This document shows, in pieces, positions 1 through 62,944 of a DNA stretch of 64,000 bases. Made by a program: the position numbers and the translations under genes. This stretch comes from Fluviicola sp. (GTDB taxonomy: Bacteria; Bacteroidota; Bacteroidia; Flavobacteriales_D; Crocinitomicaceae): the NCBI GenBank assembly GCA_047947105.1, contig CP170456.1, forward strand, positions 888,530-952,529, in the 5' to 3' direction. The notes beneath the pieces were generated by a model. The model was not told the origin of the DNA. It did not search any database and was given only the letters and a program-made list of their open reading frames with translations. The first letter of the stretch is position 1, and each line of letters begins with the position of its first letter.

Positions 1-695
1 TGCGTGTACGGGGTTCTTGAATAGGGTTGTGGCTCTTTCTTCATGGTTCGGCTAGCTTTTACTGGCTGGTACGAAAGTTTCCCGTTCTGTTGAGCGGCTT
101 GAGCTACTGTTTGAGTTGCTGTCAATCCTAACGTAATCGCTTCAACCGCTTCAAGCCCAGCAATACCGAAAAGTCCCGGATTCATCTGCTGGCTATAATC
201 TCCGAGCATTAAGCTTTGACCGCTAGAGGTATTTGCCCAAGAGCCATTCGCGAATTCCCAAAACCAAACAACTTTGTTATCGTAGAAATTATCTCCCATG
301 ACACCATTGTAAATCACGTCGATATGACCAAAGCCTCTATCACCTCCACGATTATCATGCGCAAAATAAATGATACCACTCTTCCCTGCGAAATCGGACA
401 GTTTCCAACGACCAGTTGGATGCGTCATCTTTTGTGGATATTTCAATTCTGTGAACAACCAATCAGCTAAGGCTGCCGCACTGGGCTGATACAATTTGCC
501 ACCCTTTTTTGCCGTTTTTCGGAATTTATCCGATTTTTTCAGTCGTGTCTCAGAAATACCTGATTTGATTAGCGCAAAGCTCAATCGCATTGCGCATTCG
601 TTATTCCCTTCTTTCTTCGGATAATTCGATTTGATTTTTTGAGGTGACGGAAAGGTATTTCCATGTGCTTCTGAGAAAGCTGATTTGTTTCTCAT
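1..695 (-). CDS. Tae4-family peptidoglycan amidase domain (gamma-D-glutamyl-mDAP endopeptidase type) at the N-terminus of a longer protein; the 3' end lies beyond the left window edge
   Basis: Absent from the ORF track because it runs off the window. Hand translation of the minus strand from ATG 695..693 stays open to nt 1 (checked codon by codon, no in-frame stop). Product: MRNKSAFSEAHGNTFPSPQKIKSNYPKKEGNNECAMRLSFALIKSGI...GIIYFAHDNRGGDRGFGHIDVIYNGVMGDNFYDNKVVWFWEF, followed by at least 80 more residues. Cys34 in 'NECAMRLSFAL' (nt 594-596), His124 in 'GHIDVIYNG' (nt 324-326) and Asp135 (nt 291-293, 11 residues after the His) reproduce the Cys-His-Asp core and spacing I recall for Tae4 ('NACPIRMSYVL' and 'GHVTLWNGSICSD'). 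Confidence 0.7.
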   Translation of the reverse strand, partial: MRNKSAFSEAHGNTFPSPQKIKSNYPKKEGNNECAMRLSFALIKSGISETRLKKSDKFRKTAKKGGKLYQPSAAALADWLFTELKYPQKMTHPTGRWKLSDFAGKSGIIYFAHDNRGGDRGFGHIDVIYNGVMGDNFYDNKVVWFWEFANGSWANTSSGQSLMLGDYSQQMNPGLFGIAGLEAVEAITLGLTATQTVAQAAQQNGKLSYQPVKASRTMKKEPQPYSRTPYT

Positions 696-744
696 GACCT
701 TTTGCTCTAAAACGAGAAGTCTGTTATTGTTCATAATGCTTGTA

Positions 745-1302
745 TTAGTGAATCGTAATTTTTGCTATCGCAATTTGCGTAAGTTGATTTTTGCTTGTTA
801 TTTGATATTCGTTTATTCCCAATCGGTGAAAGGCTCCTTTAAATTTTTCGGTTCCCAAAAGGTCCTGCATGGCTCGTTTACCTTCTTGATGATACATAGT
901 GATTGGAATTCTAAAAATTCGGCTTTGACCTCCTACAGAAAGTCGAATTTCACCTTGCTCAATACGCTTTTCATCTTTGGGCTCATAGCGGACGAGTAGC
1001 ATGAAGTGCCCCTTACCATCAGATCTTCGTTCAAAGATTCGTTCCTCTACCCGAATTCGATCTCCCATGTAGTAGGCACCTTCGAATTGAATAGGAATGA
1101 GAGGCAAAGCATTGTTCGTTCCGTCGCGGCAGACAACTCCAACAATGGGAAGGTAACGTACCTTTTCTGGAGGCCTGATGGAACTTCCTTTATTGTTTCT
1201 ACTTTGAAGAACTTCCATCTGATCCGGTGATAATTTAATGCTCGGCGGATCTTGCTGTTTCCGATTTTGTATGCGGCTTTCTATGTCGAGGAGCTTGCTC
1301 AT
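745..1302 (-). CDS. hypothetical protein, 185 aa, beta-rich, no signal peptide; operon member directly upstream of the Tae4-like gene
   Basis: Its ATG overlaps the stop of the upstream gene by 4 nt (1299..1302), indicating translational coupling. No motif recognised. The C-terminal two thirds alternate hydrophobic and polar residues ('GEIRLSVGGQSRIFRIPITMYH'). Confidence 0.6.
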   Translation of the reverse strand: MSKLLDIESRIQNRKQQDPPSIKLSPDQMEVLQSRNNKGSSIRPPEKVRYLPIVGVVCRDGTNNALPLIPIQFEGAYYMGDRIRVEERIFERRSDGKGHFMLLVRYEPKDEKRIEQGEIRLSVGGQSRIFRIPITMYHQEGKRAMQDLLGTEKFKGAFHRLGINEYQITSKNQLTQIAIAKITIH

Positions 1303-2291
1303 TCTTCAGTCGCTGTATTATCCTCTGATTTCACAATAATTTCTTCCTCGATTACTGCGTCTTTTATATCCGAATGGCTATCTGCTGTAGACGTAGTTTT
1401 CTTACTTTCTGCCAATTCATCTTCGGCAATGCTGTCCATTACCTCAAAATCCTCAGCATACTCCATTCCATCCATGGCAACCGATCGTTCATCAATAATA
1501 TCCTCTACTCGATCTTTTGCCAAGGCAACCGAACCTTTCGTTAAATCGCCATCAGCTTCATCAAAAATGGAATTCAATTCTACCTCACCTAGTTGGTAGG
1601 TTGTTAAGTTGTTCCGATCCGCTGCCAGTTGATCAAAAATGGCTTCATCTTTGGCCATTTTCTTTTCCAGCTCCTTTACACGCTCATCAGTATCGTCTGC
1701 TGGAGGATTGTTTTGCGCTGGAGCCACTTGTTGTCCCTCCGAATAATCTGCCAAATTGGCAAGACTTTTCTGCCCACTTAATACCGCCTGTAGATCTTTT
1801 GCGAACTGATCGTCTACCTCCACCTCATCTGCCATGGCGTCCACTTGAGGGGCATTGGATGAAGCGTTTTCTGACTCAGTAAAAATGGCATCATCTGAAG
1901 ACTCAAACACATCCGAGTATTGATTGTTTTCATCAAGTGGTTCCGAATCGTAAGCGTCGTTCATTGCCCTTGCATGCGAAGTAGAAGTATCGTGTAATTC
2001 ATCCGAATTTAAATCATCGGTATCATATGCTTTGGCCATTACGAAAGTTTCGCTAGACAGTCCCATGGTAAAGTCCTCTCCGTGGTCAAAAACTTCATCA
2101 TCAGTCATTTCAAAAGCATCTGTATATTCCAGGTCGGCCTCCATACCGATGCTCATATCATCATTATATGCTTTACCCATACTCATGGCCTCAGACCCCA
2201 CTTGTGTTTCATGTGGGATTTCTAGAGCTATGGCTCCTTTGGAATCGTAATGTGTTTTTCGAACGCCTGAATTTCTGTAATTACTGTTCAT
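1299..2291 (-). CDS. hyper-acidic, probably disordered protein, 330 aa
   Basis: Long ORF in the operon. My hand count gives about 85 D/E against about 23 K/R. There are no hydrophobic stretches. A K/D-A-Y-acidic motif recurs ('GKAYNDD', 'AKAYDTDD', 'NDAYDSE'). A central helical segment reads 'ERVKELEKKMAKDEAIFDQLAADRN'. Confidence 0.6.
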   Translation of the reverse strand: MNSNYRNSGVRKTHYDSKGAIALEIPHETQVGSEAMSMGKAYNDDMSIGMEADLEYTDAFEMTDDEVFDHGEDFTMGLSSETFVMAKAYDTDDLNSDELHDTSTSHARAMNDAYDSEPLDENNQYSDVFESSDDAIFTESENASSNAPQVDAMADEVEVDDQFAKDLQAVLSGQKSLANLADYSEGQQVAPAQNNPPADDTDERVKELEKKMAKDEAIFDQLAADRNNLTTYQLGEVELNSIFDEADGDLTKGSVALAKDRVEDIIDERSVAMDGMEYAEDFEVMDSIAEDELAESKKTTSTADSHSDIKDAVIEEEIIVKSEDNTATEE

Positions 2292-2306
2292 TCTATTCTC
2301 TTTTTC

Positions 2307-3080
2307 CTATTTAAGATTCGATCTTACTTTTATATTGAAGGCAGTATGTTCATCCAATTGTACTGTCAAATCATTCACTTCTTTAATCCTCGCGTTGGAT
2401 AATTCTATGACTAAAAAATCCTTTGAGGCTTCGATGACTTTCATTTCATCGTTATTCAATTTTGCCCGCAAGGCTTGAGATCCATCTATGGCGAGATTCT
2501 CCCCTTGAACGGCTAAAATATTTCGTCCTCGAATGGAACCTAATTGAGCTGCTTTCACGCGCGGTGGATGTTGTCCTCTCTGTGCTTTGTTGATGAGTCC
2601 AGCTAACTTTTTGAAGTCGATTTGTGAACTTCCTTTTTTCCCTTCTTCAGAGGAAGCAACGGGTTTGTTCACTTTCACATTCTTTTCTTTCAACTTCTTG
2701 ATGTCTTCGGCAGAACGAACTCCCATTCGATTCAATTGAATCTTGGTAGATTCATCAATCTCATCAATTTCATCAATGGTAATGTCGTCACCAGAGATGG
2801 GTTTCTTTGTGGTTTCGCGAATCTGCCGATCGGTAATGGACCCTAATGACAAGCTTATTTTAGAAGAACCAGAATCTCCGGTAGCAGCTGTTGTGAACCG
2901 AACGCCTCTTCCGTCATATTCAGGGAAAACGTTCAAGTCTAGGGAAACGTCTTTGACCGCATAAGACAACGGACTGTTTAGCCCTTTCACTGAGAGCGTT
3001 TCGCGAGCTTTATCCAACTCGAATACCAGCGAGTCGATAAAATCCTCCAATTGCCATGACTTGTTATTCTTTTTCGCCAT
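2307..3080 (-). CDS. hypothetical protein, 257 aa, three-part: N-terminal small beta module, acidic/basic linker with an HhH-like segment, C-terminal IPT/TIG-like beta-sandwich pattern
   Basis: The start overlaps the upstream gene by 17 nt. The N-terminus 'WQLEDFIDSLVFELDKARETL...YAVKDVSLDLNVFPEYDGRGVRFTTAATGDSGSSKISLSLGSI' resembles by eye the small trypsin-co-occurring (Trypco2-like) domains of conflict systems. The C-terminus 'PPRVKAAQLGSIRGRNILAVQGENLAIDGSQ...VIEASKDFLVIELSN' has an IPT-like pattern. Both assignments are weak. Confidence 0.55.
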   Translation of the reverse strand: MAKKNNKSWQLEDFIDSLVFELDKARETLSVKGLNSPLSYAVKDVSLDLNVFPEYDGRGVRFTTAATGDSGSSKISLSLGSITDRQIRETTKKPISGDDITIDEIDEIDESTKIQLNRMGVRSAEDIKKLKEKNVKVNKPVASSEEGKKGSSQIDFKKLAGLINKAQRGQHPPRVKAAQLGSIRGRNILAVQGENLAIDGSQALRAKLNNDEMKVIEASKDFLVIELSNARIKEVNDLTVQLDEHTAFNIKVRSNLK

Positions 3081-3369
3081 ACAGTTTGTAGAGCGGAGCT
3101 ACGGTCATTTTTAAGTTTTGTATAACCGGCATAAAGCTGGTTTCTATCTTCTGGGTGGGTGGCGCAGATCCAATGGTTACGCTACCATCGTCTTCGACTA
3201 AAACATCAAGTTCACAGGGAAAATCAAGGCGTAGTTCTTCTACTTTCATCGCTTCCCACAATTCAGAATCATTGGATTCGTTTGTGATCCCAGCGAGCAG
3301 CTCCACCATGAAGGAGAAAGGCGTTAAGGCCTCGTCAATTTCTTGATATTTCTCGTTATTTTCTTCCAA
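3064..3369 (-). CDS. hypothetical small acidic protein, 101 aa
   Basis: The start overlaps the upstream 61-aa gene by 14 nt and the stop overlaps the next gene. 'VEELRLDFPCELDVLVEDDGSVTIGSAPPTQKIETSFMPVIQNLKMTVAP' has the same strand, G/S loop, strand look as the N-terminus of the 257-aa protein. Confidence 0.5.
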   Translation of the reverse strand: MEENNEKYQEIDEALTPFSFMVELLAGITNESNDSELWEAMKVEELRLDFPCELDVLVEDDGSVTIGSAPPTQKIETSFMPVIQNLKMTVAPLYKLYGEKE

Positions 3370-3541
3370 CGACTTTTCGTTTTTTCTTGTAGTCCAAATC
3401 GACAGGGGTAGCGCGGACCTTTTTGTCCATCATCACTTCCATTCCATCGATAATAACACCTGTTTTGATGCCTTCTCCATCACTTGACATTGCTCCTGCA
3501 AGTCGATCTGATAAATCCGGAAATTTCGTTCTGTAACTCAT
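3356..3541 (-). CDS. hypothetical small protein, 61 aa, with a basic C-terminal tail (KKKRKVVGRK)
   Basis: ATGA start/stop overlap with the 692-aa gene (3538..3541). It sits in an otherwise gap-free operon. No homology recognised. Confidence 0.45.
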   Translation of the reverse strand: MSYRTKFPDLSDRLAGAMSSDGEGIKTGVIIDGMEVMMDKKVRATPVDLDYKKKRKVVGRK

Positions 3542-5616
3542 ATCTCATTGTTTGATTGAACTCCCACAAAGTGCGCTAGTTCTGGAATTGGAAACACCAC
3601 TTTTTCTTCTTCAAATCCTGCAATTGTTCCGTAAGGAGTAATGTTTGCAGTTTTTTTCAAAATGATTTCTCGAAGAACCATTTCTGGGTATACCCACAAA
3701 GCAGCTGCTTCTCCATCACGCCCTTTGTACTTTAAACCACTTCGGGCAGCTCGGTGTTGTTGCTTGATGAAGGCATCTGTTTTCAATGCTTCCAACTGAT
3801 CAATACTGAGTGATTCGCCTCCGATTGTCGGGAGCAAATCATTTAACACTTCAGGGCTTAGAATCAAGCCTGATTTCATCTTGCCCTCCATCTTCCTCGG
3901 TCTGGCTGGCTCCAAAAACTCTACCGTTTCCATTTGAGCATTGGCTCTTCGATCTGCTTCAATGGCATAGTAATACTTGCACTCAAATTCATAGCGTACC
4001 GTATCATTTGTGAAATCTGCTTGCCACACTTTGTGCCAGAAGGGACGGTGCAGTTCAATGTCATTTAGCGCCACAACGTGCTTTGATTCACCGATTCGGT
4101 CAAATGCGTATTCTGTAGCAACAGCAATAGGAATATCAATACAACTTCCGAACTTCTTATTGCGCTTTCCTTTCCAAAGCACCGCCAGATATAAATCATA
4201 AGATTCACCCGACACGAGGTCGTCTGCCAAATGCGCTGGAATTGTAGGGTGCATTTCAAAGATTCCTCCTCTTGAGCCTTGATGTCTTTGTCTGTGTCGA
4301 ATCACGACTTCACTCGAATCCTTGCGGCGCACAATAATTTCAAAAATCCCTCTGGGAATGTCTCGCGGTGTGTGGAGTTTTACAGGAATCTTCATCTCAA
4401 TTCCATAGCCATACACATAGTGTGTATCTCCATTCAGGATTGATTTCTCAATTTCTGCAACTTCGATACGAACAAGATTACTCTTCTGAAACTTTATTCG
4501 TTGGAAGTAAGAAGATTCAACCCCCATTTGATTTAGTAATCCCTGTACGTCCTTATCATCAACTCCTGGGTTCAACTTTTGGAGGGCATCTAGCTCATCT
4601 TTGTTGATCTGTGCTCCTATTTTTCCAAGTTTTGCCAAACCATCGGTTACAACACCTACCAATTTCATGATGGCTGTTGGGTCCATCATAGCTCCACTGT
4701 ATTGGAGGACACTCATTTGATTCAGCAGTCCTTGCACATCCTTATCATCAACTCCGGGATTGAGTTTTTGAAGTGCGTCAAGTTCGTCCTTATTGATCTG
4801 AGCCCCTATTTTGCCAAGTTTTGCCAAACCATCAGTAACTGCCCCCACGAGCGCCATTATGGTCATTGGATCCATCATTGCGCCGCTGTAGTTGCCAGAA
4901 CTTAATTGTTGTGCAGAAGCTTGTGTGGGTGTTTCTCCTCCTGAGACTCCCTTTAAAAGATCGATAACTTGCTGAAGTTTCTCTGGATCTGAAATCAAAT
5001 TGAGAATTTGTTGACCCAAACCGCCGCCAGTACCGCCAGAAGTTCCGCTATTAGAACCCGTACCACCGTCCGTTGAAGTTTCGGTTGTTCCACCAGAGCT
5101 CCCACCATTGCCTCCACCGGAAATCAATTGTCCCACGGCAGGCAACACTTTAGGGAGAAATTTCATCACCTTGTCTAGGAACATTGCTTCTGACATTCCT
5201 GACTCCTTGTATTGAAAGGGAACGCTATGTATTTCTTTATTTAACGAATTTGTTTCCATTGCGAATTGAATTGAAGGAAGTGGTTGTGAGGAGACTCCAG
5301 GCATTGTCCTCACTATTGAGGATATTGCAGGCCCGGTTCCGTCTGCCTCACGGTAACTTACAATTTGTACGTATGCGTTTTCAAGAGAGAAGACTTCTTG
5401 CGGAACTCTGAATCGAATGCGTCCCAATTTCGGGGCTGGAATGGGTCCGTACATTTTACTTACGAACGACTTCCGTTCCAGTACGGGAACACCATAACTT
5501 CGATAGGTTCTTCGGTCACCAATCATTATACGGAAGTAAGAGTTGCCCCCTAGATCAGCCTGAAACTCTTGATGACCGTTCGCCGCTCCTTGATATTTCA
5601 AAAACGCTAACGCCAT
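3538..5616 (-). CDS. hypothetical multidomain protein, 692 aa: N-terminal about 160-aa domain, Gly/Ser/Thr linker, two tandem 59-aa helical repeats, about 330-aa C-terminal domain
   Basis: Uninterrupted 2.1 kb ORF whose start lies 6 nt after the upstream stop. The linker 'SGGGNGGSSGGTTETSTDGGTGSNSGTSGGTGGG' maps to about nt 5017-5124. Repeats are described under the repeat feature. No P-loop, signal peptide or known catalytic motif seen. Confidence 0.7.
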   Translation of the reverse strand: MALAFLKYQGAANGHQEFQADLGGNSYFRIMIGDRRTYRSYGVPVLERKSFVSKMYGPIPAPKLGRIRFRVPQEVFSLENAYVQIVSYREADGTGPAISSIVRTMPGVSSQPLPSIQFAMETNSLNKEIHSVPFQYKESGMSEAMFLDKVMKFLPKVLPAVGQLISGGGNGGSSGGTTETSTDGGTGSNSGTSGGTGGGLGQQILNLISDPEKLQQVIDLLKGVSGGETPTQASAQQLSSGNYSGAMMDPMTIMALVGAVTDGLAKLGKIGAQINKDELDALQKLNPGVDDKDVQGLLNQMSVLQYSGAMMDPTAIMKLVGVVTDGLAKLGKIGAQINKDELDALQKLNPGVDDKDVQGLLNQMGVESSYFQRIKFQKSNLVRIEVAEIEKSILNGDTHYVYGYGIEMKIPVKLHTPRDIPRGIFEIIVRRKDSSEVVIRHRQRHQGSRGGIFEMHPTIPAHLADDLVSGESYDLYLAVLWKGKRNKKFGSCIDIPIAVATEYAFDRIGESKHVVALNDIELHRPFWHKVWQADFTNDTVRYEFECKYYYAIEADRRANAQMETVEFLEPARPRKMEGKMKSGLILSPEVLNDLLPTIGGESLSIDQLEALKTDAFIKQQHRAARSGLKYKGRDGEAAALWVYPEMVLREIILKKTANITPYGTIAGFEEEKVVFPIPELAHFVGVQSNNEI
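4525..4890 (-). repeat. in-frame tandem duplication (2 x 59 aa, period 63 aa / 189 nt) inside the 692-aa gene
   Basis: Copy 1 (nt 4714-4890): YSGAMMDPMTIMALVGAVTDGLAKLGKIGAQINKDELDALQKLNPGVDDKDVQGLLNQM. Copy 2 (nt 4525-4701): YSGAMMDPTAIMKLVGVVTDGLAKLGKIGAQINKDELDALQKLNPGVDDKDVQGLLNQM. The copies differ at 4 of 59 residues. The DNA copies differ at many synonymous sites, e.g. attcagcagtccttgcac versus atttagtaatccctgtac. Confidence 0.9.
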
Positions 5617-5622
5617 TCAGAT

Positions 5623-6648
5623 TTACGTTTTTGGTTTTGAACCAGCTGGATTAGACGCATTCGTATGCGTCGCAATTTCCGTTTCGCTTTCGATCTTATA
5701 GATGTCTACGAATTTGTCCAATTCGAAATAATCTGTGGAGAAAATCAACTCGACATTACCCGTAAGTTTTGCTGCGAGTTCATCTTTTGTATTACTCTTC
5801 GCTGAGGATACGCTCACCGAAGTGGACCGTTTAGAACTACTGCGTCCTACCGATGGCCCGCCAAAGATAGAACCAATCAATCCTCCGCTTGCTTTTGCAT
5901 AACCTCCGGATGAACTACTGTTTTTGTTCATTGCCTTGTCCTGGAAGTTCGCATTCGTCTCCGATTTAAAGTCAAACTGAACTCCTGCTTTGATTGTACC
6001 TTTGTCAACCACCATTCGGGTAACTCCCATGAGGATAATGTTCTGCAATGCTTTACGGTGTTCTTTGGCCAATTTCAGTTTCGCATCCATAATTGCGGCT
6101 TTCACTTCGTTGTCCTCCATGTCCACCGGTTCCCCCGTCTTGTTGGTTAATTTTGCACCGTCATCATCGAATGACATATTGAAGTCGTCATTGGAATCTG
6201 CTAGTTCGCCAAAAGCATCTTCGTCCGATACTTGTTTCACAAATTGCGCTACAGATTTCGAAGCTTCCTTCATCAACTTGATATAGTTGTCGGTTTGCTC
6301 CTTCATTACGGCCATATTTGCATCGAAAACGCCACTTACCAAGTCCTTTACAAACTGTGGGAAATTGACCGTATCTGTAAGTTCATCGAAAGCTTCTACT
6401 CCACGACCGATATCGTGTTGGTGTCTTCTTTGATCTATGAGGTCACTCGCTCTGTCTGCAGTCTGAGATCCTCTCTTTTTTCGCTGCTGCTCTGAAAGTC
6501 GCTTGGCGTTGGCAAGTACCATGTCCTTATACGTTGACATTTGATCTGCCTTCGACATTGCCTGGAACGAGCTACTTCTCGCTAAAACCTCTCGAGCTTC
6601 CTCTCGCGCCAGTTGCTTGATTTGCTCGTTTGATAATTCTTCTGCCAT
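5623..6648 (-). CDS. hypothetical protein, 341 aa: N-terminal charged helical region, central helical domain, Ser/Gly-rich segment, short C-terminal beta module
   Basis: Long ORF in the operon. Segments: 'EELSNEQIKQLAREEAREVLA', 'NFPQFVKDLVSGVFDANMAVMKEQTDNYIKLMKEASKSVAQFVKQV', 'SSSSGGYAKASGGLIGSIFGGPSVGRSSSKRSTSVSVSS', 'LTGNVELIFSTDYFELDKF'. No family recognised. Confidence 0.65.
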   Translation of the reverse strand: MAEELSNEQIKQLAREEAREVLARSSSFQAMSKADQMSTYKDMVLANAKRLSEQQRKKRGSQTADRASDLIDQRRHQHDIGRGVEAFDELTDTVNFPQFVKDLVSGVFDANMAVMKEQTDNYIKLMKEASKSVAQFVKQVSDEDAFGELADSNDDFNMSFDDDGAKLTNKTGEPVDMEDNEVKAAIMDAKLKLAKEHRKALQNIILMGVTRMVVDKGTIKAGVQFDFKSETNANFQDKAMNKNSSSSGGYAKASGGLIGSIFGGPSVGRSSSKRSTSVSVSSAKSNTKDELAAKLTGNVELIFSTDYFELDKFVDIYKIESETEIATHTNASNPAGSKPKT

Positions 6649-6704
6649 GTTTCTTAGTTTTTTGTTAGAAATTGAATTTGATTACGTGCCTTTCGGCAGT
6701 GGAA

Positions 6705-8261
6705 TTACATATCCCAATCTTCAAATTCTTCCTCGGCAGCAGCTAATTCAGCTCGGGGTGATACAGGTCCGTCAGATGACTCTTTTGATCCCTCTTGTCC
6801 CAATGCAATGATGTATGCTTCACATTTCACAATGAAGTTCGTGAATTCGGTTTTTGTGATTGTTGATTCGTTAAACGTTGAGATAATTTGGAAGAGGTTA
6901 TATCCTTCTACAGCAGCTGTTTTGTATGCCGTAATATTCGGAGATGTTCCAAATTTAGATTGGTGCAACATATCAATCACTGACCACACGTTTTGTGTTC
7001 TTCCCGGAGCCACTTGATTGATTACGCCTGGCTGACTCATGATTTCAAATGCGTCCTGTAAATGGTTGTACATTTCAGTAGTTTGAATATGCGCCATTCC
7101 TGTAAAGAACGATGTCAGATTGTACTGAATTTCGCGAATCAATTGAACAATTGGCAGTTTGGAAACAAAATCTTGGTTGTTCGAAGTCTCTGTCTTTGTG
7201 ATATAAGCAACCACTTCTTCCATTAGTGCGTGCCACAATCTTGTGAACGAATCGTTTACAATGGTACCTTGAAGTAGCTCTGCGTCCCCAAGGTTCAATA
7301 CACGCTTGTACAACATACCGCGTTCTTCACTGCTTGTTCTTTCTTCCAGTAATTTGTAGTAACGATACATTCTGCTTTCTGCTACTGGATCTGTTATATA
7401 GATACTTCCGCGCGCCCACTCTAATATCAAAGCTTCAGCCAAATCGAATACGCCTAATTGCTCGCCAAGTACATAGATGTAATTTACAGCTCCAGCTCCC
7501 AAAATGTTTTTTGGAAGTATTCCTTGCTCTCCGGCAGAGTCAAATAAGTCCACCGAGAAATCCCAGGTATTCTTACTGCCTTTAACACGAATTTGATCGA
7601 TTGGATCAATTCCTCCTTGATCTACCTTTATCGCGTAATCGAGAGCAAGCGCAAAGTATTCATCAAAATCCTGATCATTGATAGCACTTTCTACATCAAG
7701 TGTTGCTGTTGGAATCGATAAGTTCAAGGATTTCATGTAATCGATCATTGATTCGATCATTTTATCCGAGACACTATCACGATCTACCTCTGCTTTTGTC
7801 TTGTCGAGGTATGCAATGATAAAACGACGGTAAGGACCTTCTTCAGACACTTTATCGTACAGAGCCAAAATTGGAGCCACAGCTTCCCCATCGGTTATTG
7901 GAACAGGAGCATCCATTGCCAATTGAGCAATGTCCTCAACCATATCTGTATCTGAAGAATCAATTCCTTTCGAATCCAATACCTCAACTACCAGGTTTTG
8001 ATAAAACTCTTCTACTAACGTTGCCAAATGGCGTAAAACAGCATTGTAGATACCATTTTCGTCTGTGATGTTTACATTTTCAGTATTGAACGCATAATAC
8101 AAACATGCAGCGTACAATTGCGGGTCTGAAAGTAACTTTCGCTCCAACAGTGAGAGACTCGTTGTGTTCAAACGGTGATTTACATTGGTAATTACACCTG
8201 TTATTCCTTGTTGTGCAATGAAATCTTGAATTTCTTGCTCAATTGTTGTTGTCGTTGACAT
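6705..8261 (-). CDS. hypothetical protein, 518 aa, mostly helical, acidic C-terminal tail (AAAEEEFEDWDM)
   Basis: 1.55 kb ORF in the operon. No signal peptide, TM helix or NTPase motif. No family recognised. Confidence 0.65.
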   Translation of the reverse strand: MSTTTTIEQEIQDFIAQQGITGVITNVNHRLNTTSLSLLERKLLSDPQLYAACLYYAFNTENVNITDENGIYNAVLRHLATLVEEFYQNLVVEVLDSKGIDSSDTDMVEDIAQLAMDAPVPITDGEAVAPILALYDKVSEEGPYRRFIIAYLDKTKAEVDRDSVSDKMIESMIDYMKSLNLSIPTATLDVESAINDQDFDEYFALALDYAIKVDQGGIDPIDQIRVKGSKNTWDFSVDLFDSAGEQGILPKNILGAGAVNYIYVLGEQLGVFDLAEALILEWARGSIYITDPVAESRMYRYYKLLEERTSSEERGMLYKRVLNLGDAELLQGTIVNDSFTRLWHALMEEVVAYITKTETSNNQDFVSKLPIVQLIREIQYNLTSFFTGMAHIQTTEMYNHLQDAFEIMSQPGVINQVAPGRTQNVWSVIDMLHQSKFGTSPNITAYKTAAVEGYNLFQIISTFNESTITKTEFTNFIVKCEAYIIALGQEGSKESSDGPVSPRAELAAAEEEFEDWDM

Positions 8262-8280
8262 CTTCCTTTAATTTTTAAGA

Positions 8281-8553
8281 TTATGAGTTATCTGATCCTG
8301 TTGAGGCTCCACCACCGTACGAATCAATACCTGTGTAGATATTGTCATTGTCATCAGTGACACTTTGCTTTAGTAGCGTGATCGCTTTTTTCGCAAGTGG
8401 ATCAATTTTCTTTGATACTGTATCCAACTGGAGAACATTCGTAGGTCTCGCAAAAATAGATGGATCTAAAATGGTTGGTAAATACTCATTGGCTGCACTC
8501 GTGTATGAGGTAAGGCCGCTAAGATTCGCCGTGCTCGATAAATAATTTGCCAT
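8281..8553 (-). CDS. hypothetical small protein, 90 aa, with a Gly/Ser-rich C-terminus
   Basis: Starts 11 nt after the S8 protease stop and ends 19 nt before the next start. The sequence ends 'GIDSYGGGASTGSDNS'. Confidence 0.5.
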   Translation of the reverse strand: MANYLSSTANLSGLTSYTSAANEYLPTILDPSIFARPTNVLQLDTVSKKIDPLAKKAITLLKQSVTDDNDNIYTGIDSYGGGASTGSDNS

Positions 8554-8564
8554 ATCTGTTTGTT

Positions 8565-9866
8565 TTAATTGTTGAGTTTATATTCGAGTAATTTGATTGC
8601 ATCTTTTAAGTTCACCACTCCGTAGCCCATTTTGAAATCCTTCATGCGAGTCCCTACTTTATCTGAAGTGTGCTTCAGAATATATTTTACGTGGTGATCT
8701 TTTAATTTTCTTCCTTTCTGAAGTGCAAATGATTTGAGCATTGCAACTGCACCGGCAACAAAAGGAGCCGCGTGAGAGGTACCGGTGGAATATGCGTATT
8801 TCCCATCCAGATAAGTGCTGTAAATCTCAGTTCCCGGAGCCACAAAATCCACTTGATCGCCATAGGTTGAGAAGGGTGCTACTTTGTAAAAGGACTGATC
8901 TGTTGCACCCACGCTGATTACATGCGGCAATCCAGACGGAAAATAGATAGAGTTTTTACCATCATTCCCAGTCGCCGCAACAATGGTTACCCCTTTTTCT
9001 TTGGCATAATTGACCACATCCTCATGCGGTAAGCCTCCACCTTCATGGACTATTCCAAGACTCATGTTTATTACGTCTGCTCCATTATCAACAGCCCATT
9101 TGATTCCGGCATTTATGTTTCCTACGAGCCCAGCCCCTACTTTAGATTCGCCCTTCTTCATAGCGCCAAGCACCCGAATAGGAATGATTTTACAATTAGG
9201 AACAACACCTTGTGGCATATTTTTACCTTTCCCACATATGATTCCTGCGACGTGTGTGCCATGTCCTACTTCGTCTTCTGGGTCTGGATCATATCCGAGG
9301 TAATCACCTACGAACTGATTCGCTCCTGAAATGATATTTACAAAATCAAATCCCGGTAGCATACAGTGTTCCAGTTCTGGATGGTTGGTGTCTACACCGG
9401 TATCTAGCACTGCAATTTTTACGTCTGTATGACCCGTTGTTTTTTGAAGCGTTTCGTCCAGACCTATAGCTTTTCTAGCACTGTCCAACCCATGACTACT
9501 TCTACTCTTGGATTCGCTTACTCTCGGAAGATCACTTGAGATAATATGCCCAGGCTTTACAGAAATAATATTCGGCACGAGACGCAGTTTCTGCACAAGA
9601 CCAGAAGGAATTTCTTTGGTGTTCAAGAGAATGAATCTGAAATGAGTATCAAAATTTGCTTTCGTTTCCTCAGGTGTCCATTGCCCTCCCTTTTTTTTGT
9701 ATTCGGTTGTAACACTAAACTCAAGACCATAGTTGTCGAAAATCTCATCCACTTCTGGTGAAAAAGTTTTTACAGCAGCTGCCGAACCAGTTGCGACATC
9801 CCCCCAAAACGGGAGACTTCTAACTGCTTCAGTTGGTTTGCTCTGGACAACGAGATGGTGCTTCAT
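8565..9866 (-). CDS. S8 family subtilisin-like serine protease, apparently cytoplasmic, with an about 140-aa N-terminal extension
   Basis: Asp/His/Ser triad motifs are present in the canonical order: 'VLDTGVDTNHPEL', 'HGTHVAGIICG', 'GTSHAAPFVAGAVAML'. An oxyanion-region 'ATGNDG' is also present. The N-terminus 'MKHHLVVQSKPTEAVRSLPFWGD' is not a signal peptide. It is the first gene of the operon. Confidence 0.9.
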   Translation of the reverse strand: MKHHLVVQSKPTEAVRSLPFWGDVATGSAAAVKTFSPEVDEIFDNYGLEFSVTTEYKKKGGQWTPEETKANFDTHFRFILLNTKEIPSGLVQKLRLVPNIISVKPGHIISSDLPRVSESKSRSSHGLDSARKAIGLDETLQKTTGHTDVKIAVLDTGVDTNHPELEHCMLPGFDFVNIISGANQFVGDYLGYDPDPEDEVGHGTHVAGIICGKGKNMPQGVVPNCKIIPIRVLGAMKKGESKVGAGLVGNINAGIKWAVDNGADVINMSLGIVHEGGGLPHEDVVNYAKEKGVTIVAATGNDGKNSIYFPSGLPHVISVGATDQSFYKVAPFSTYGDQVDFVAPGTEIYSTYLDGKYAYSTGTSHAAPFVAGAVAMLKSFALQKGRKLKDHHVKYILKHTSDKVGTRMKDFKMGYGVVNLKDAIKLLEYKLNN

Positions 9867-10274: not shown

Positions 10275-11594
10275 ATGAAACAAACCTATCTTATCCTCTG
10301 CGCTTTCTGTTTTGCGATAACAAGTTCTTGCTCCTCTGAATCCTCCGAAATCGAGTCCCAAAAAAATGACACTACCAAAAAAGGGAAAGCAAGTCAACTC
10401 GGCACTCAAACCGTAGCTCCCATCATTAACATGAGTGAGTTTTCCAAAATGTCTAAAGAAGACTTACGATTGGCTAGAAATACCGTTTTCGCTAAGTATG
10501 GACGTGTTTTTAAATCGAAAGATTTGAAAGATCATTTCGCGAAGCAAAGTTGGTATCATGAGAACCCAGCCTTCAAGCAAAGTGACATGAAACAGCAGGA
10601 TATTGACATTGTGAACCTTATCCAGCGATGGGAGGAGAAAACAGAGATTTTACTGCAAGAGCGTGCAGATATAACTGGAAATGGCAGCTACGAGGATTGC
10701 TTTGTGCTCTACAATAAAAACAAAGGTACCTACTCCATCATTGTAAACGATTTCTCACAAGAGTTCGACCACTTTTGGGGACAGGCCGATGATAGCCAAG
10801 GACTTCCGTCGGATTGGATAGAGATTCAAGCCCAAATTATTGATATCGACAGCGAAGACTTTAAACAGGAGATTCTGGTTAGTCAACGCTATGCTGATTG
10901 GGAAGATCCGGGTACACATAACATAATTGTGGCATTCAACGATGGTGTAAAAGTAACAGAACTTAGCAGTACTGATTACGACGCAGGGACTTTAGAGATT
11001 GACGGCGAAGGAACGGTAGTTATGAATTATTCAAATTGTCCTCCGCACACCAAGTATTTCAAACTCAATCGTGGCAAAGTAGAGCAATTTGATGAAAAAA
11101 TAGGCCCGACACCAAAAGGCGGTTGTGCTGCATGCTTTTCTGGCGATGCACAAGTAGCCACTTCAATGACCGACACTAAAGCATTATCGGCCTTACAACG
11201 TGGAGACTTGGTTTTAACCTACAATCCTGTGTCGACAAAATATGAGCAAACAGAAGTAGAACGCATTTTATCAGTATTTCATGATAATCTCTATGAGGTT
11301 AAGGTTGGTAAATCAGTTATTACGGTAACTGAAGACCATCCATTTCTGTCAGAATCAGGTTGGTGTTCGATCGCTCCAGAAAAAACAATGCAGCGATATG
11401 GATATGAAAATGTGCAATTGCTCACGGCAGGATCAAAACTTGTACACATTAATGGCAACTCTGTTTTCGTGGAGTCGATCGAACCAAAATTGGAAGGAAT
11501 AATGACGTATACCATTTCAACCCTTAAAAACGGGCAAAACTTTATCGTTAACGGAGTGGTTGTGGGAACGGAAACAGTTACTCCTTACTTCTAG
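10275..11594 (+). CDS. lipoprotein with a YARHG domain and a C-terminal Hint (intein/hedgehog-type) domain
   Basis: Lipobox 'AITSSC'. YARHG-type segment 'LRLARNTVFAKYGRVFKSKDLKDHFAKQSWYHENP' (about nt 10446-10565). Hint blocks: 'CFSGDAQVAT' (Cys287, nt 11133), 'VTEDHPF' (TxxH) and terminal 'NFIVNGVVVGTE', ending about 7 aa before the stop. Confidence 0.75.
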   Translation: MKQTYLILCAFCFAITSSCSSESSEIESQKNDTTKKGKASQLGTQTVAPIINMSEFSKMSKEDLRLARNTVFAKYGRVFKSKDLKDHFAKQSWYHENPAFKQSDMKQQDIDIVNLIQRWEEKTEILLQERADITGNGSYEDCFVLYNKNKGTYSIIVNDFSQEFDHFWGQADDSQGLPSDWIEIQAQIIDIDSEDFKQEILVSQRYADWEDPGTHNIIVAFNDGVKVTELSSTDYDAGTLEIDGEGTVVMNYSNCPPHTKYFKLNRGKVEQFDEKIGPTPKGGCAACFSGDAQVATSMTDTKALSALQRGDLVLTYNPVSTKYEQTEVERILSVFHDNLYEVKVGKSVITVTEDHPFLSESGWCSIAPEKTMQRYGYENVQLLTAGSKLVHINGNSVFVESIEPKLEGIMTYTISTLKNGQNFIVNGVVVGTETVTPYF

Positions 11595-60691: not shown

Positions 60692-62944
60692 ATGACAAAA
60701 AATTCCTACCGAAAACTAACAGCATTGCTTTGCCTTCTCGTGTTCCCATGGTGTAGCAATGCGCAGTTCGTACTTGAATACAATGATTCTATCCCTGTTC
60801 TTCGTTCGGGAGACACATTGAAAAACGCATGGGCAGGCGGTTTGAATTACATTCAAATGTCTGATTTCGATTATGATCAGGATGGAGACATGGATTTATT
60901 CTGTTTCGACAGAAGTAGTAACAATGTACGGGTTTTCACAAAAGAATGGAATGGCACCAACTTCTACTATGATTATATCCTGGATGCAGAAGATTTCTTC
61001 CCTTCTGACTTGCGTTACAGAGCCCAGCTGGTGGATTACGATCAAGATGGACGAAAAGATCTGTTCACTTGGGGACTAGGCGGTGGACTGAAAGTATACA
61101 GAAACGTTTCTGACCAGGTGAATGGTCTGCAATGGTCTCTTTTTCAAGCAGACGTACATTCAGATTACGCCGTAAATGGATTGCAATCATTATTTATAAG
61201 TGCCGATGACTTGCCAGGATTAGTGGACATTGACGAGGACGGAGATCTGGATATCCTCACTTCGGATGCGTCTGGGCTGCGACTGGAATATCATCAAAAT
61301 CAAAGCATGCAGCTCTATGGCATTCCTGATTCATTAGTATTTGTGCAAAAGAACGAGTGCTGGGGGAAATTTACAGAAGGGGTTACCAACTTTACCATCA
61401 ATCTCAACGACACAACACCGCCCTGTGAGAACGGAAATATTGCCAATCCTGAACGAACGAGTGCAATCGCATCTCAAAAGGAAATGCACGCTGGCACCTC
61501 CATTCTTTGTTTGGATATCGACAGTTCTGGAGTAAAGGACATCATTATGGGAGATGCTGCATTTTCCGGCCTGACTTTGCTAATCAATGGCGGAACAGCT
61601 GTGAATACAGACTCACCCATGACCAGTTTGGACGATGCGTTTCCAATTTACTCAGTCCCGGTGAAATGCCATAACTTTCCTGGAGCTTTTTATGTGGATG
61701 TAGATTTCGACCAGAAACGGGATTTGATTGCTTCCCCTAATACAGAGGTGAATTCACTGGATCGAGAAAGCGTTGTATACTACCAAAACATCGGTACGGA
61801 CAATGTCCCTGTTTTCACACCCATTTCTAATAATTTCCTTCAAGACGAAATGATTGAACATGGAACGGGAAGTATTCCTGTCTTATTCGATTATAATGGT
61901 GATGGACTAGAGGATCTATTGATAGCCAACTTCTACAATTACAAACCTGTTGGAGACAAAGAAAGTTTGATCTCCTTGTATTATAACGTGGGTACTGCTA
62001 CAGAACCTGTCTTCCAATTTGTTGATATGGATGCATTCAACCTAACACAGCAAAATTATGGCCTTCGTTCTGTTCCCACATTTGGAGACATTGACAATGA
62101 TGGCGACAAAGATCTTCTATTAGGTCTGGAGGATGGCACTATTGTTTTTTATGAAAACCTCGCTACTGGACCGATGCCGATTTGGGGCAACCCCGTTATG
62201 AATTACTCCGACGATCAATCCAATCCGATTAGTGTAAGCGCATACGCGCATCCGCAACTATTTGATCTTAACAATGATGGTTTGCTCGACCTGCTCATAG
62301 GAAATCGAGTGGGCAACATTGCTTACTATGAAAATATTGGAACATTAACGAATCCATCATTTCAATTGAACAATGCAATCTTGGGCGAGGTAGACATTTT
62401 GCCAGGCAATCAAAGCTCTAATGCTGCCATCCATTTTTTTGAAGAAAATGGAGAAACGCACTTATTCTGTGGTTCATTCGACGGTAACCTTACGTACTAT
62501 AATGATATTGACGGAAACTTAAATCCTGGCGATTCATTTAACCTAGTTTCAGATATGTACCATGGCATTGACGTCGGTAAACATAGCGCAGTATTTACGC
62601 ATGATTTAGACCTTGATGGTAATCGTAATTTGTTTTTAGGTCAAGATTTGGGTGGGTTATACCACTATAACCTTATGTATGATTCCACTGCATCACTTGT
62701 AGAGACTAGCACCGCCCTTGTCTCTTTGTACCCAAATCCAACGGAAGGAAACTTCACCATTTCAAGTCCTGAACCAATTGAGAACGTCAGAATCCTGGAT
62801 GCGAAAGGAAGATTAATTCAAGAAATAGATCCTACTGATCCTAATATTCAAATTACCTTAGAATCGAATACTACAGGTTTGTATTATGTCATTGTGCAAT
62901 TACAATCAGGGAAGGTATCCACCAAAAAACTGATTCGAGAATAG
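60692..62944 (+). CDS. FG-GAP/VCBS repeat protein with a T9SS C-terminal sorting domain
   Basis: Repeated 'D.D.DGD.DL' calcium-binding loops: 'DYDQDGDMDLF', 'DIDEDGDLDIL', 'DYNGDGLEDLL', 'DIDNDGDKDLL', 'DLNNDGLLDLL'. C-terminus 'LYPNPTEGNFTI...GLYYVIVQLQSGKVSTKKLI'. Confidence 0.8.
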   Translation: MTKNSYRKLTALLCLLVFPWCSNAQFVLEYNDSIPVLRSGDTLKNAWAGGLNYIQMSDFDYDQDGDMDLFCFDRSSNNVRVFTKEWNGTNFYYDYILDAEDFFPSDLRYRAQLVDYDQDGRKDLFTWGLGGGLKVYRNVSDQVNGLQWSLFQADVHSDYAVNGLQSLFISADDLPGLVDIDEDGDLDILTSDASGLRLEYHQNQSMQLYGIPDSLVFVQKNECWGKFTEGVTNFTINLNDTTPPCENGNIANPERTSAIASQKEMHAGTSILCLDIDSSGVKDIIMGDAAFSGLTLLINGGTAVNTDSPMTSLDDAFPIYSVPVKCHNFPGAFYVDVDFDQKRDLIASPNTEVNSLDRESVVYYQNIGTDNVPVFTPISNNFLQDEMIEHGTGSIPVLFDYNGDGLEDLLIANFYNYKPVGDKESLISLYYNVGTATEPVFQFVDMDAFNLTQQNYGLRSVPTFGDIDNDGDKDLLLGLEDGTIVFYENLATGPMPIWGNPVMNYSDDQSNPISVSAYAHPQLFDLNNDGLLDLLIGNRVGNIAYYENIGTLTNPSFQLNNAILGEVDILPGNQSSNAAIHFFEENGETHLFCGSFDGNLTYYNDIDGNLNPGDSFNLVSDMYHGIDVGKHSAVFTHDLDLDGNRNLFLGQDLGGLYHYNLMYDSTASLVETSTALVSLYPNPTEGNFTISSPEPIENVRILDAKGRLIQEIDPTDPNIQITLESNTTGLYYVIVQLQSGKVSTKKLIRE

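Follow-up and report, generated by a model that had tools for sequence, protein, structure and literature searches.

Which system makes use of a Tae4 peptidoglycan amidase when no type VI secretion system (T6SS) is in sight? Known Tae4 effectors are stand-alone proteins of about 160 aa that are delivered by a T6SS and have a periplasmic immunity partner (Tai4/Rap). The question is raised by a 64,000-nucleotide stretch of a Fluviicola sp. genome (contig CP170456.1, positions 888,530 to 952,529; the window hereafter), at whose edge the first-pass annotation had noticed a Tae4-type domain in a larger protein. The gene was found directly downstream of a cluster of seven core genes, encoding an S8 serine peptidase and the proteins p518, p341, p692, p61, p101 and p257, and its product shares a short N-terminal tag with the products of neighboring genes. 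From sequences and predicted structures, we give about an even chance to the reading that the Tae4 protein is cargo of an undescribed, non-T6SS system which delivers wall hydrolases to other bacteria. The system behind this protein appears to be new.

A Tae4 Amidase within a Protein of 412 Residues

On the minus strand, the Tae4 open reading frame (ORF) is open from position 734 and runs past the edge of the window at base 1. The peptides NNECAMRLSFALIKSGI, GFGHIDVIYNGVMGD, VVWFWEF and TATQTVAQAAQQNGKLSYQP, which had been read by hand, were all found in its translation. The full-length protein P0001, from a Fluviicola sp. metagenome-assembled genome (MAG), comprises 412 aa, begins with MNNNRLLVLEQKVMRNK and is 100% identical to the part encoded in the window. 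The domain is thus N-proximal in a larger protein, as had been proposed. The start had been placed at M695, but the ATG at position 734 adds the 13 residues MNNNRLLVLEQKV ahead of it. Because Tae4 orthologues at 83–85% and 56% identity retain this N-terminus with substitutions (MYNNRLLVLEQRA, MQNNRLISLEQKL), ATG 734 was taken as the start and the stretch 734–695 as coding. Starting at M695 would lose exactly those residues that carry the conserved tag described below.

The assignment to the Tae4 family held. Residues 44–159 matched the Pfam family Tae4 (PF14113) with 59.1 bits (cut-off 27 bits; E 6.1e-16), covering model positions 2–125 of 125. Against PDB, phmmer aligned the domain with Serratia Ssp1 (4BI3, E 8e-7) and Agrobacterium Tae4 (6IJF) and, more weakly, with the Salmonella and Enterobacter Tae4 proteins (4J30, 4HFF). 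Cys47 falls on Ssp1 Cys50, in agreement with the row of the C50A mutant in the PDB alignment. The catalytic Cys and His had been numbered Cys34 and His124, with a His-Asp spacing of 11 residues; counted from M695, these numbers and the spacing are exact, and the Asp is Asp135. The PDB alignments confirmed the Cys and the His, but not the Asp: they stop before Asp148, which follows His137 by 11 residues, or put no Asp opposite it. The domain end near VVWFWEF was also recognized correctly, since stand-alone orthologues stop there (P0004 terminates in ...WFWEYSGGSW). To judge from these matches, the domain is of a known kind and an ordinary member of its family. By family precedent, it would cut the gamma-D-Glu-meso-diaminopimelate bond of peptidoglycan.

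The NCBI label of the protein is T6SS Tae4-family effector. T6SS genes, including those for VgrG, Hcp and PAAR proteins, were found neither among the ORFs of the operon and the ten largest ORFs elsewhere in the window nor in the precomputed Pfam annotation up to 10 kb from the orthologous loci L002, L003 and L004. The context is therefore atypical, as had been stated, both for the lack of a T6SS nearby and for the N-terminal place of Tae4 in a longer protein. Nor does the protein have the stand-alone form of about 160 aa; in L004 and L011, the same operon slot holds a stand-alone Tae4 of 181–182 aa, which retains the tag.

Beyond the Tae4 domain, a second module opens with the hydrophobic helix LFGIAGLEAVEAITLGLTA (window 117–179; Kyte-Doolittle maximum 1.52). 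A search with residues 172–412, i.e., the module with its linker, returned seven proteins among 5.8 billion. These comprised three Tae4 fusions, two fusions to DUF4157/eCIS_core (P0006 and P0007) and two stand-alone proteins (P0008 and P0009). DUF4157 is reported to be an N-terminal signature domain of toxins associated with extracellular contractile injection systems (eCIS), and the example EAT14 carries its putative toxin domain on the C-terminal side of DUF4157 (PMC11297309). The module is 55–63% identical to the C-terminal parts of P0006 and P0007, and the gene for P0006 (locus L001) directly follows eCIS tape-measure and AAA ATPase genes. In Rhodonellum (L020), the module aligned over the full length of a 255-aa protein with its own tag, encoded in the cargo region. 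Since it occurs alone with a tag in Rhodonellum and behind DUF4157 at an eCIS locus, the module is independent. It is best described as a rare putative effector domain used in two delivery contexts and not as a carrier of Tae4. Thus, the C-terminal region for which no identity had been offered is real, but it is an independent cargo module. The AlphaFold2 model of P0001, based on an alignment of nine sequences, had a predicted local distance difference test (pLDDT) score of 53 overall and contained a beta-rich domain at about residues 225–400 with pLDDT values of 60–88. Between P0001 and its orthologue P0002, identity was 70% in the module and 85% in the first 244 residues; p518 was 94% identical.

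A Common N-Terminal Tag

In L002, L003 and L004, four consecutive genes, those for p185, the Tae4 protein, a GH108 fusion protein and p313, open with the same tag. Its family consensus is N-R-[F/L]-[L/I]-x-[L/I]-[E/Q]-x-[E/D]-L, followed by a basic tract. The Crocinitomicaceae variants are, in this gene order, MSKLLDIESRIQ, MNNNRLLVLEQK, ..TNRLLSLESK and MERNRLIAIEQR. The tag was also present on two Peptidase_C70 proteins of a Gemmatimonadaceae genome (MKNRLVSLFQ and MPNRLLDLFN; L019) and on the 255-aa and 811-aa cargo proteins of Rhodonellum (MNRIIALRKEI and MKGNRILMLQENL).

The enrichment of the tag was determined at 80 metagenomic loci retrieved with a p341 profile, scoring the pattern N-[RK]-Phi-x-x-Phi within the first 22 residues. 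Of the 108 ORFs that encode at least 120 aa and lie no more than 6 kb downstream of p257, 30 carried it. By comparison, it was present in none of 104 other plus-strand ORFs (Fisher p = 2e-10) and none of 308 core ORFs (Fisher p = 9e-23), i.e., in 0 of 412. When 50 N-termini were aligned with the NR dipeptide as anchor, the non-anchor positions were biased as well, with L at +3, L/I at +5, E/Q at +6, E/D at +8 and L at +9, and a Lys/Arg-rich tract followed at +13 to +21. This pattern corresponds to a predicted amphipathic helix with a basic leader behind it, and its conservation at the protein level extends across phyla. It is the tag, and not the C-terminal region, that neighboring genes have in common, and the tag is therefore likely to be the delivery determinant. 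Very probably, then, the Tae4 protein is tagged cargo of this cluster.

Cargo Proteins

A Pfam scan of 44 tagged proteins yielded Peptidase_C70 (11), Phage_lysozyme (9), GH108 (5), PG_binding_3 (5), Glucosaminidase (3), Peptidase_M15_3 (3), VanY (3), Amidase_2 (2), Peptidase_C92 (2), OmpA (2) and PG_binding_1 (2). Tae4, NlpC/P60, GH19, M15_2 and Extensin-like_C occurred once each. Nearly every recognizable cargo domain cleaves or binds peptidoglycan. Signal peptides are lacking, because the tag takes the extreme N-terminus. Some Peptidase_C70 cargo proteins additionally contain OmpA or PG_binding_1 domains (L019).

The cultured strain Fluviicola taffensis DSM 16823 has a single cargo protein, a tagged polypeptide of 1215 aa (L015:17452-21099) with VanY/M15_4, phage lysozyme, GH108 plus PG_binding_3, LysM and Amidase_2 domains. 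Four different peptidoglycan-cleaving activities are thus predicted in one chain, and multi-enzyme fusions appear to be normal among the cargo of this cluster. No Tae4 was found in the cargo slot of L013–L016, and Tae4 is absent from the F. taffensis clade. Between close relatives, the second module, the M15 domain and Tae4 come and go with tag and core constant. Thus, the cargo is shuffled between close relatives and the core is not.

Distribution of the Core Cluster

None of the 80 metagenomic loci departed from the order S8, p518, p341, p692, p61, p101, p257, and 29 of them contained the set from S8 to p257; the S8 gene always came first. The cluster was found at nine species-representative genome loci, including that of F. 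taffensis, and also in Gemmatimonadaceae (L019) and Rhodonellum (L020). Overall, it occurs in at least four phyla, Bacteroidota, Gemmatimonadota, Fibrobacterota and Cyanobacteriota. In size, the family amounts to 620 p341 homologues, 373 p692 clusters at 50% identity and 179 metagenomic loci. The source names of the p341 homologues, all of which are labeled 'hypothetical', add Fulvivirga, Sinomicrobium, Saprospiraceae, Chitinophagales and Chitinivibrionales (Fibrobacterota).

In cyanobacteria, the cluster resides on mobilizable plasmids of about 190 kb in Tolypothrix and Microchaete, with an IS701 element in the cargo slot. The copy of Tolypothrix sp. PCC 7712 (L102; plasmid NZ_CP063787.1, 193 kb, mobilizable) has its core at 137197-147368. 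Between its S8 and p518 genes, it encodes a peptidoglycan-binding coiled-coil protein; the p61 motif is found as the C-terminal end of a 436-aa protein, and an IS701 transposase stands where cargo would be expected. Just upstream of the Gemmatimonadaceae cluster, a sigma-54-dependent activator is encoded (L019:4833-5969), which hints at regulated expression. The cluster of L011 (CAXPPC010000005.1), titled as the alphaproteobacterium Henriciella pelagia, is 64–82% identical to that of Fluviicola with an equal cargo layout; this MAG is probably mis-binned or mislabeled.

The core proteins other than S8 gave no above-threshold match in single-protein scans of Pfam, PHROGs, NCBIfam and PADLOC. The homologue sets of p341, p692, p257 and p518 likewise gave nothing above threshold in Pfam. 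Sequence-profile searches of PDB with p341, p518, p692 and p257 returned no match apart from one chance match of p341. Weak recurrent matches to Focal_AT, Phasin and TIG in the homologue sets were attributed to noise at the level of composition or of helices, although the TIG signal may reflect a real beta-sandwich at the C-terminus of p257. No relative of p341 was present in IMG/VR (2.9 million viral contigs) or INPHARED (50,697 phage genomes), and a phage origin of the cluster is disfavored. At this sensitivity, no resemblance of the core to a known secretion system, eCIS, phage module, defense system or shell was seen. In full-text literature of incomplete coverage, neither the cluster nor the tag was found to be described, so that a description may exist.

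Individual Core Proteins

The S8 protein carries the Asp, His and Ser motifs of its family and no signal peptide, and is predicted to be a cytoplasmic subtilisin-like serine peptidase. No segment of any core protein reached the hydropathy threshold for transmembrane helices, and inspection of the N-termini revealed no stretch resembling a signal peptide.

The most conserved core protein is p341, with 78–96% identity within the Crocinitomicaceae (58–94% for p518) and 45–50% across phyla. None of its 620 homologues contains a Pfam domain. Its AlphaFold2 model, based on 118 sequences (pLDDT 74, predicted template modeling score (pTM) 0.45), shows a helical body and one hairpin of two 21-residue strands. 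The tip loop of the hairpin is Ser/Gly-rich and disordered and contains the Gly-zipper GGLIGSIFGGP. In the family consensus, conserved hydrophobic residues alternate on both strands. A Foldseek search with this model returned nothing significant (best E 0.17 in PDB and 0.04 in BFVD). The weak fold neighbors were mostly ring or pore formers with long hairpins, namely iota Ib, CDTb, the stems of aerolysin and lysenin, FliF and podovirus tail knobs.

In p692, an N-terminal domain is followed by a Gly-rich linker, a hydrophobic helix that occurs twice and, over about 330 aa, a conserved C-terminal domain; the p692 family, with 373 representatives at 50% identity, has no Pfam or PDB match. The duplication corresponds to a 189-nt tandem repeat with 1.9 copies and 76% DNA identity (window 4525-4890, within the p692 gene on the minus strand). 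It encodes two near-identical 63-aa copies (MMDPxxIMxLVGxVTDGLAKLG...) with few substitutions by eye, and both copies appear to be under purifying selection. For p257, a Pfam analysis of 37 members gave only weak TIG-like and helix-hairpin-helix-like signals, and PDB searches were negative.

Operon Layout and Neighboring Genes

Exact-protein look-ups with p185 and P0001 returned no match, and the context was taken from the loci of the orthologues P0002, P0003 and P0004. Look-ups with two Tae4 orthologues gave the 21-kb loci L002 and L003 from Fluviicola/Crocinitomicaceae genomes; L004 is the third locus. The gene order is S8 peptidase, small ORF, p518, p341, p692, p61, p101, p257, p330, p185 and Tae4. 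The window carries the same operon genes on the minus strand at 745-9866 (Table 1), and adjacent genes overlap or lie 6–56 nt apart. The Tae4 gene is on the same strand as p257, 1.6 kb downstream of it, and occupies the same slot in L002, L003, L004 and L011. By synteny, it lies midway in the variable tail of the operon. The gene had been placed at the end of a non-T6SS operon. The non-T6SS part stands, whereas the end does not: in the orthologous loci, three further genes follow, for a GH108 plus PG_binding_3 fusion of 630–730 aa, a protein of about 313 aa and a protein of 310–365 aa. In L003 and L004, the fusion protein also carries Peptidase_M15_3.

Table 1. Positions of the Tae4 gene, its parts and the operon genes within the window.
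Feature	Position	Strand	Evidence
Tae4 gene, 5' 244 codons of the 412-aa cargo	1..734	minus	translation; P0001 match
Second cargo module, start (residues 185-244 of ~185-412)	3..182	minus	common to P0006, P0007, P0009 and the Rhodonellum protein
Tae4 (PF14113) papain-like peptidoglycan amidase domain, residues 44-159	258..605	minus	Pfam, PDB alignments
Asp148 codon (candidate third catalytic residue; Asp135 from M695)	291..293	minus	read from sequence
His137 codon (catalytic; His124 from M695)	324..326	minus	GHID motif aligned with Ssp1/Tae4 GHID
Cys47 codon (catalytic; Cys34 from M695)	594..596	minus	aligned with Ssp1 Cys50
Tag NNRLLVLEQKV, residues 3-13 of the Tae4 protein	696..728	minus	motif common to neighboring genes
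p185, small tagged protein (MSKLLDIESRIQ), conserved in Crocinitomicaceae	745..1302	minus	N-terminal motif, synteny
p330, very acidic (85 D/E vs 23 K/R), variable slot directly after core	1299..2291	minus	composition, synteny
p257, core gene 7	2307..3080	minus	synteny
p101, core gene 6, start codon uncertain	3064..3369	minus	synteny
p61, core gene 5	3356..3541	minus	synteny
p692, core gene 4	3538..5616	minus	synteny, homologue set
p341, core gene 3	5623..6648	minus	homologues, AlphaFold2
p518, core gene 2, acidic	6705..8261	minus	synteny; no known domain
p90, small lineage-specific ORF between S8 and p518	8281..8553	minus	locus comparison
S8 serine peptidase, core gene 1	8565..9866	minus	Pfam Peptidase_S8 E 4e-55

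A small periplasmic immunity protein had been anticipated from the next ORF. Instead, the gene 3' of Tae4 begins 55 nt on and encodes a tagged muramidase (GH108) fusion of 730 aa. The tagged protein p313 (L002:13481-14422) contains possible Cys and His motifs (GWLACKDFF and GATGHVRF), and it had no match in Pfam, PHROGs, NCBIfam or, in a single-sequence search, PDB. The protein p310 (L002:14450-15382) is untagged and combines an N-terminal domain with a Lys/Ala/Pro-rich tail; it had no Pfam match.

The GC content was 0.40–0.45 throughout and gave no sign of foreign origin by composition. A divergent gene at window 10275-11594 (plus strand) encodes a protein with a lipoprotein signal and YARHG and Hint/Vint-like domains, and a gene of this kind also adjoins the cluster in L003 and L004. 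At window 60692-62944 (plus strand), an FG-GAP repeat protein with a C-terminal Por_Secre_tail, i.e., a substrate of the type 9 secretion system, is encoded; the host therefore possesses this secretion system. The tagged cargo proteins have no C-terminal domain of the Por_Secre_tail type.

Comparison with Known Systems

With the T6SS-delivered Tae4 proteins of Salmonella, Enterobacter, Serratia (Ssp1) and Agrobacterium, the protein has in common the PF14113 domain, the Cys and His residues and the WFWE end. It differs from them by a 43-residue N-terminal extension with the tag and by the second module of 230 aa. In contrast to the Tae4-Tai4 pair, there is no adjacent immunity gene and no T6SS nearby, and the protein does not stand alone. 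The closest untagged Tae4, P0005 (L005-L008; e.g., L005:705-1615), is part of an array of Rhs C-terminal tip cassettes carried by an integrase/primase element. The ORF behind it, with 161 aa and a signal peptide, encodes a putative immunity protein and has no homologue in the window or the orthologous loci. Tae4 behaves as a swappable toxin cassette in both settings, with 54% identity between the two domains. Since such a close relative sits in an Rhs cassette array, the same catalytic domain evidently moves between delivery contexts. Here, the tag takes the place of the Rhs carrier and Tae4 is N-proximal.

The classical layout of polymorphic toxins is absent, as Tae4 follows a 43-residue leader near the N-terminus and no Rhs, filamentous or PAAR parts are present. 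As in polymorphic toxins, modules are exchanged among close relatives on a constant delivery element, here the tag and the core. The eCIS toxins P0006 and P0007 share the second module, but the present protein has another N-terminal element, without DUF4157, and no eCIS genes lie nearby.

The predicted long amphipathic hairpin of p341 offers a purely functional analogy to binary-toxin translocases and beta-barrel pores (anthrax protective antigen (PA), iota Ib, CDTb, aerolysin), and its predicted tip is Ser/Gly-rich with a hydrophobic stretch. In the anthrax system, an N-terminal helix and a charged leader of lethal factor (LF) and edema factor (EF) lead the passage through PA, and the N-terminal helix and basic leader of the cargo would be a counterpart by analogy. 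Unlike these pore formers, p341 has a helical body, no signal peptide and no significant similarity to them in sequence or fold.

Targeting peptides have precedents in the capsid-targeting sequence of phage T4, which is cut by the prohead protease gp21, in the encapsulation peptides of microcompartments and in the N-terminal signals of Photorhabdus virulence cassettes (PVC) and other eCIS. The present tag is likewise short, amphipathic and N-terminal, and is borne by unrelated cargo beside assembly genes with a protease in the cluster. Its sequence is distinct, however, and the core proteins are not homologous to those of capsids, microcompartment shells or eCIS. Holin-endolysin cassettes and type 10 secretion (Salmonella TtsA) share with the cluster GH108 plus PG_binding_3 muramidases and M15 peptidases without signal peptides. 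They differ in that the cluster has no small membrane proteins resembling holins or spanins, in its soluble core of seven genes and in the size of its hydrolases, which are very large tagged multi-enzyme fusions.

Discussion

The preferred reading is that of interbacterial delivery. The Tae4 protein would be made in the cytoplasm with its tag, the amidase and, behind the hydrophobic helix, the beta-rich second module, and it would be one of three or four tagged wall-degrading cargo proteins encoded directly downstream of the core. The tag might recruit or dock the cargo onto an assembly of the soluble core proteins. By analogy to binary toxins, p341 might oligomerize via its long amphipathic hairpin into a beta-barrel channel through which the cargo passes with its N-terminus first, and the S8 protease might mature the apparatus or cut off the tag. 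The enzymes would then reach the periplasm of other bacteria and mediate antagonism, perhaps after lysis of some of the producers. Cargo specificity for peptidoglycan fits a system that reaches the periplasm only. The more specific proposal, that the seven genes encode an unrecognized delivery machine of diderm bacteria, made of soluble proteins, recognizing the tag and using a p341 beta-barrel as a channel into the periplasm of competitors, is tentative, and we consider it somewhat more doubtful than plausible.

Several observations weigh against this reading. No small ORF with a signal peptide lies 3' of Tae4 in the orthologous loci, and the missing immunity gene is no less compatible with self-lysis than with antagonism. 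The core includes neither a membrane protein nor an ATPase, which is unusual for an export machine. In the libraries searched, no known secretion, injection or shell component was found among the core proteins, and it is from context alone that the core is called an apparatus. The p341 model is of moderate confidence, and its Foldseek matches are not significant. For the second module, the model of P0001 with its low overall pLDDT found no meaningful Foldseek match in PDB. Finally, the search for T6SS and eCIS genes covered the window and the orthologous flanks only.

The cluster might instead serve programmed self-lysis, as a giant analogue of holin-endolysin cassettes. Upon a signal such as phage infection or starvation, S8 would activate p341 and p692 and the producer's own inner membrane would be perforated; the tagged hydrolases would then reach its own wall, with abortive infection or release of cell contents as the outcome. 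Cargo that consists entirely of wall hydrolases without secretion signals would suit this, as would the lack of immunity genes and a soluble core with a predicted pore-type hairpin. The protease is always first in the cluster, an arrangement for which protease-triggered pore systems are a precedent. However, close relatives differ strongly in their multi-enzymatic cargo, which fits an arms race with foreign targets; for the cell's own wall, one enzyme suffices. One of its modules, moreover, recurs in eCIS-linked DUF4157 proteins, which are reported to be exported toxins. Because of these two features of the cargo, antagonism is favored over self-lysis. PADLOC, in addition, matched no core protein except the subtilase. 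We regard self-lysis as unlikely, though as the most probable of the alternatives. A protein shell or phage-derived particle is improbable. In that case, the core would form a cytoplasmic compartment or tail-less particle with the tag as encapsulation peptide and release by lysis. A short amphipathic N-terminal helix with a linker, a dedicated protease and core proteins that are all soluble are what such a particle would have, and the missing immunity genes would be accounted for if the enzymes were stored inside it. Against it stand the lack of PHROG matches for the core proteins scanned (all but S8), of p341 relatives in the viral and phage collections, and of any detected capsid, portal, terminase or shell domain. 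Both self-lysis and storage in a particle keep some weight because the cluster has no immunity genes, ATPase or membrane proteins.

The remaining two alternatives are less probable still. The Tae4 protein could be an orphan effector of a T6SS of subtype iii or of an eCIS encoded elsewhere in the genome, its place beside the cluster being incidental. This would agree with the NCBI label, with the second module at an eCIS locus and with the 54%-identical Tae4 in an array of Rhs-type cassettes. It is very unlikely in view of the position and the neighbor-shared tag, which are kept across loci and phyla, of a protein devoid of PAAR, VgrG, Hcp, DUF4157 or Rhs parts, and of the lack of T6SS and eCIS genes in the window and the orthologous flanks. 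A housekeeping complex for wall remodeling in division, shape change or cyst formation would account for peptidoglycan enzymes as cargo, but hardly for their lack of export signals, their fast turnover between close relatives or the patchy distribution across phyla, which includes a mobilizable plasmid. Their domains, moreover, belong to types typical of toxins and phage lysins (Tae4, Peptidase_C70, GH108, phage lysozyme). We consider a housekeeping function the least probable of the explanations.

A large uncharacterized system has come to light, with hundreds of cluster representatives, no annotated domain apart from the subtilase and, in its wake, a changing set of wall-degrading enzymes with one common N-terminal tag. 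Labels such as 'T6SS effector' on Tae4-family proteins are unsafe in these phyla, and one rare toxin module serves two delivery contexts, this cluster and eCIS. If self-lysis were the function, the cluster would represent a new route to programmed bacterial death. If the cluster indeed delivers its cargo to other bacteria, it would represent a new class of bacterial weapon with a simple, portable targeting tag that could load other proteins. Since Fluviicola taffensis DSM 16823 and Rhodonellum are cultured, the idea is directly testable.

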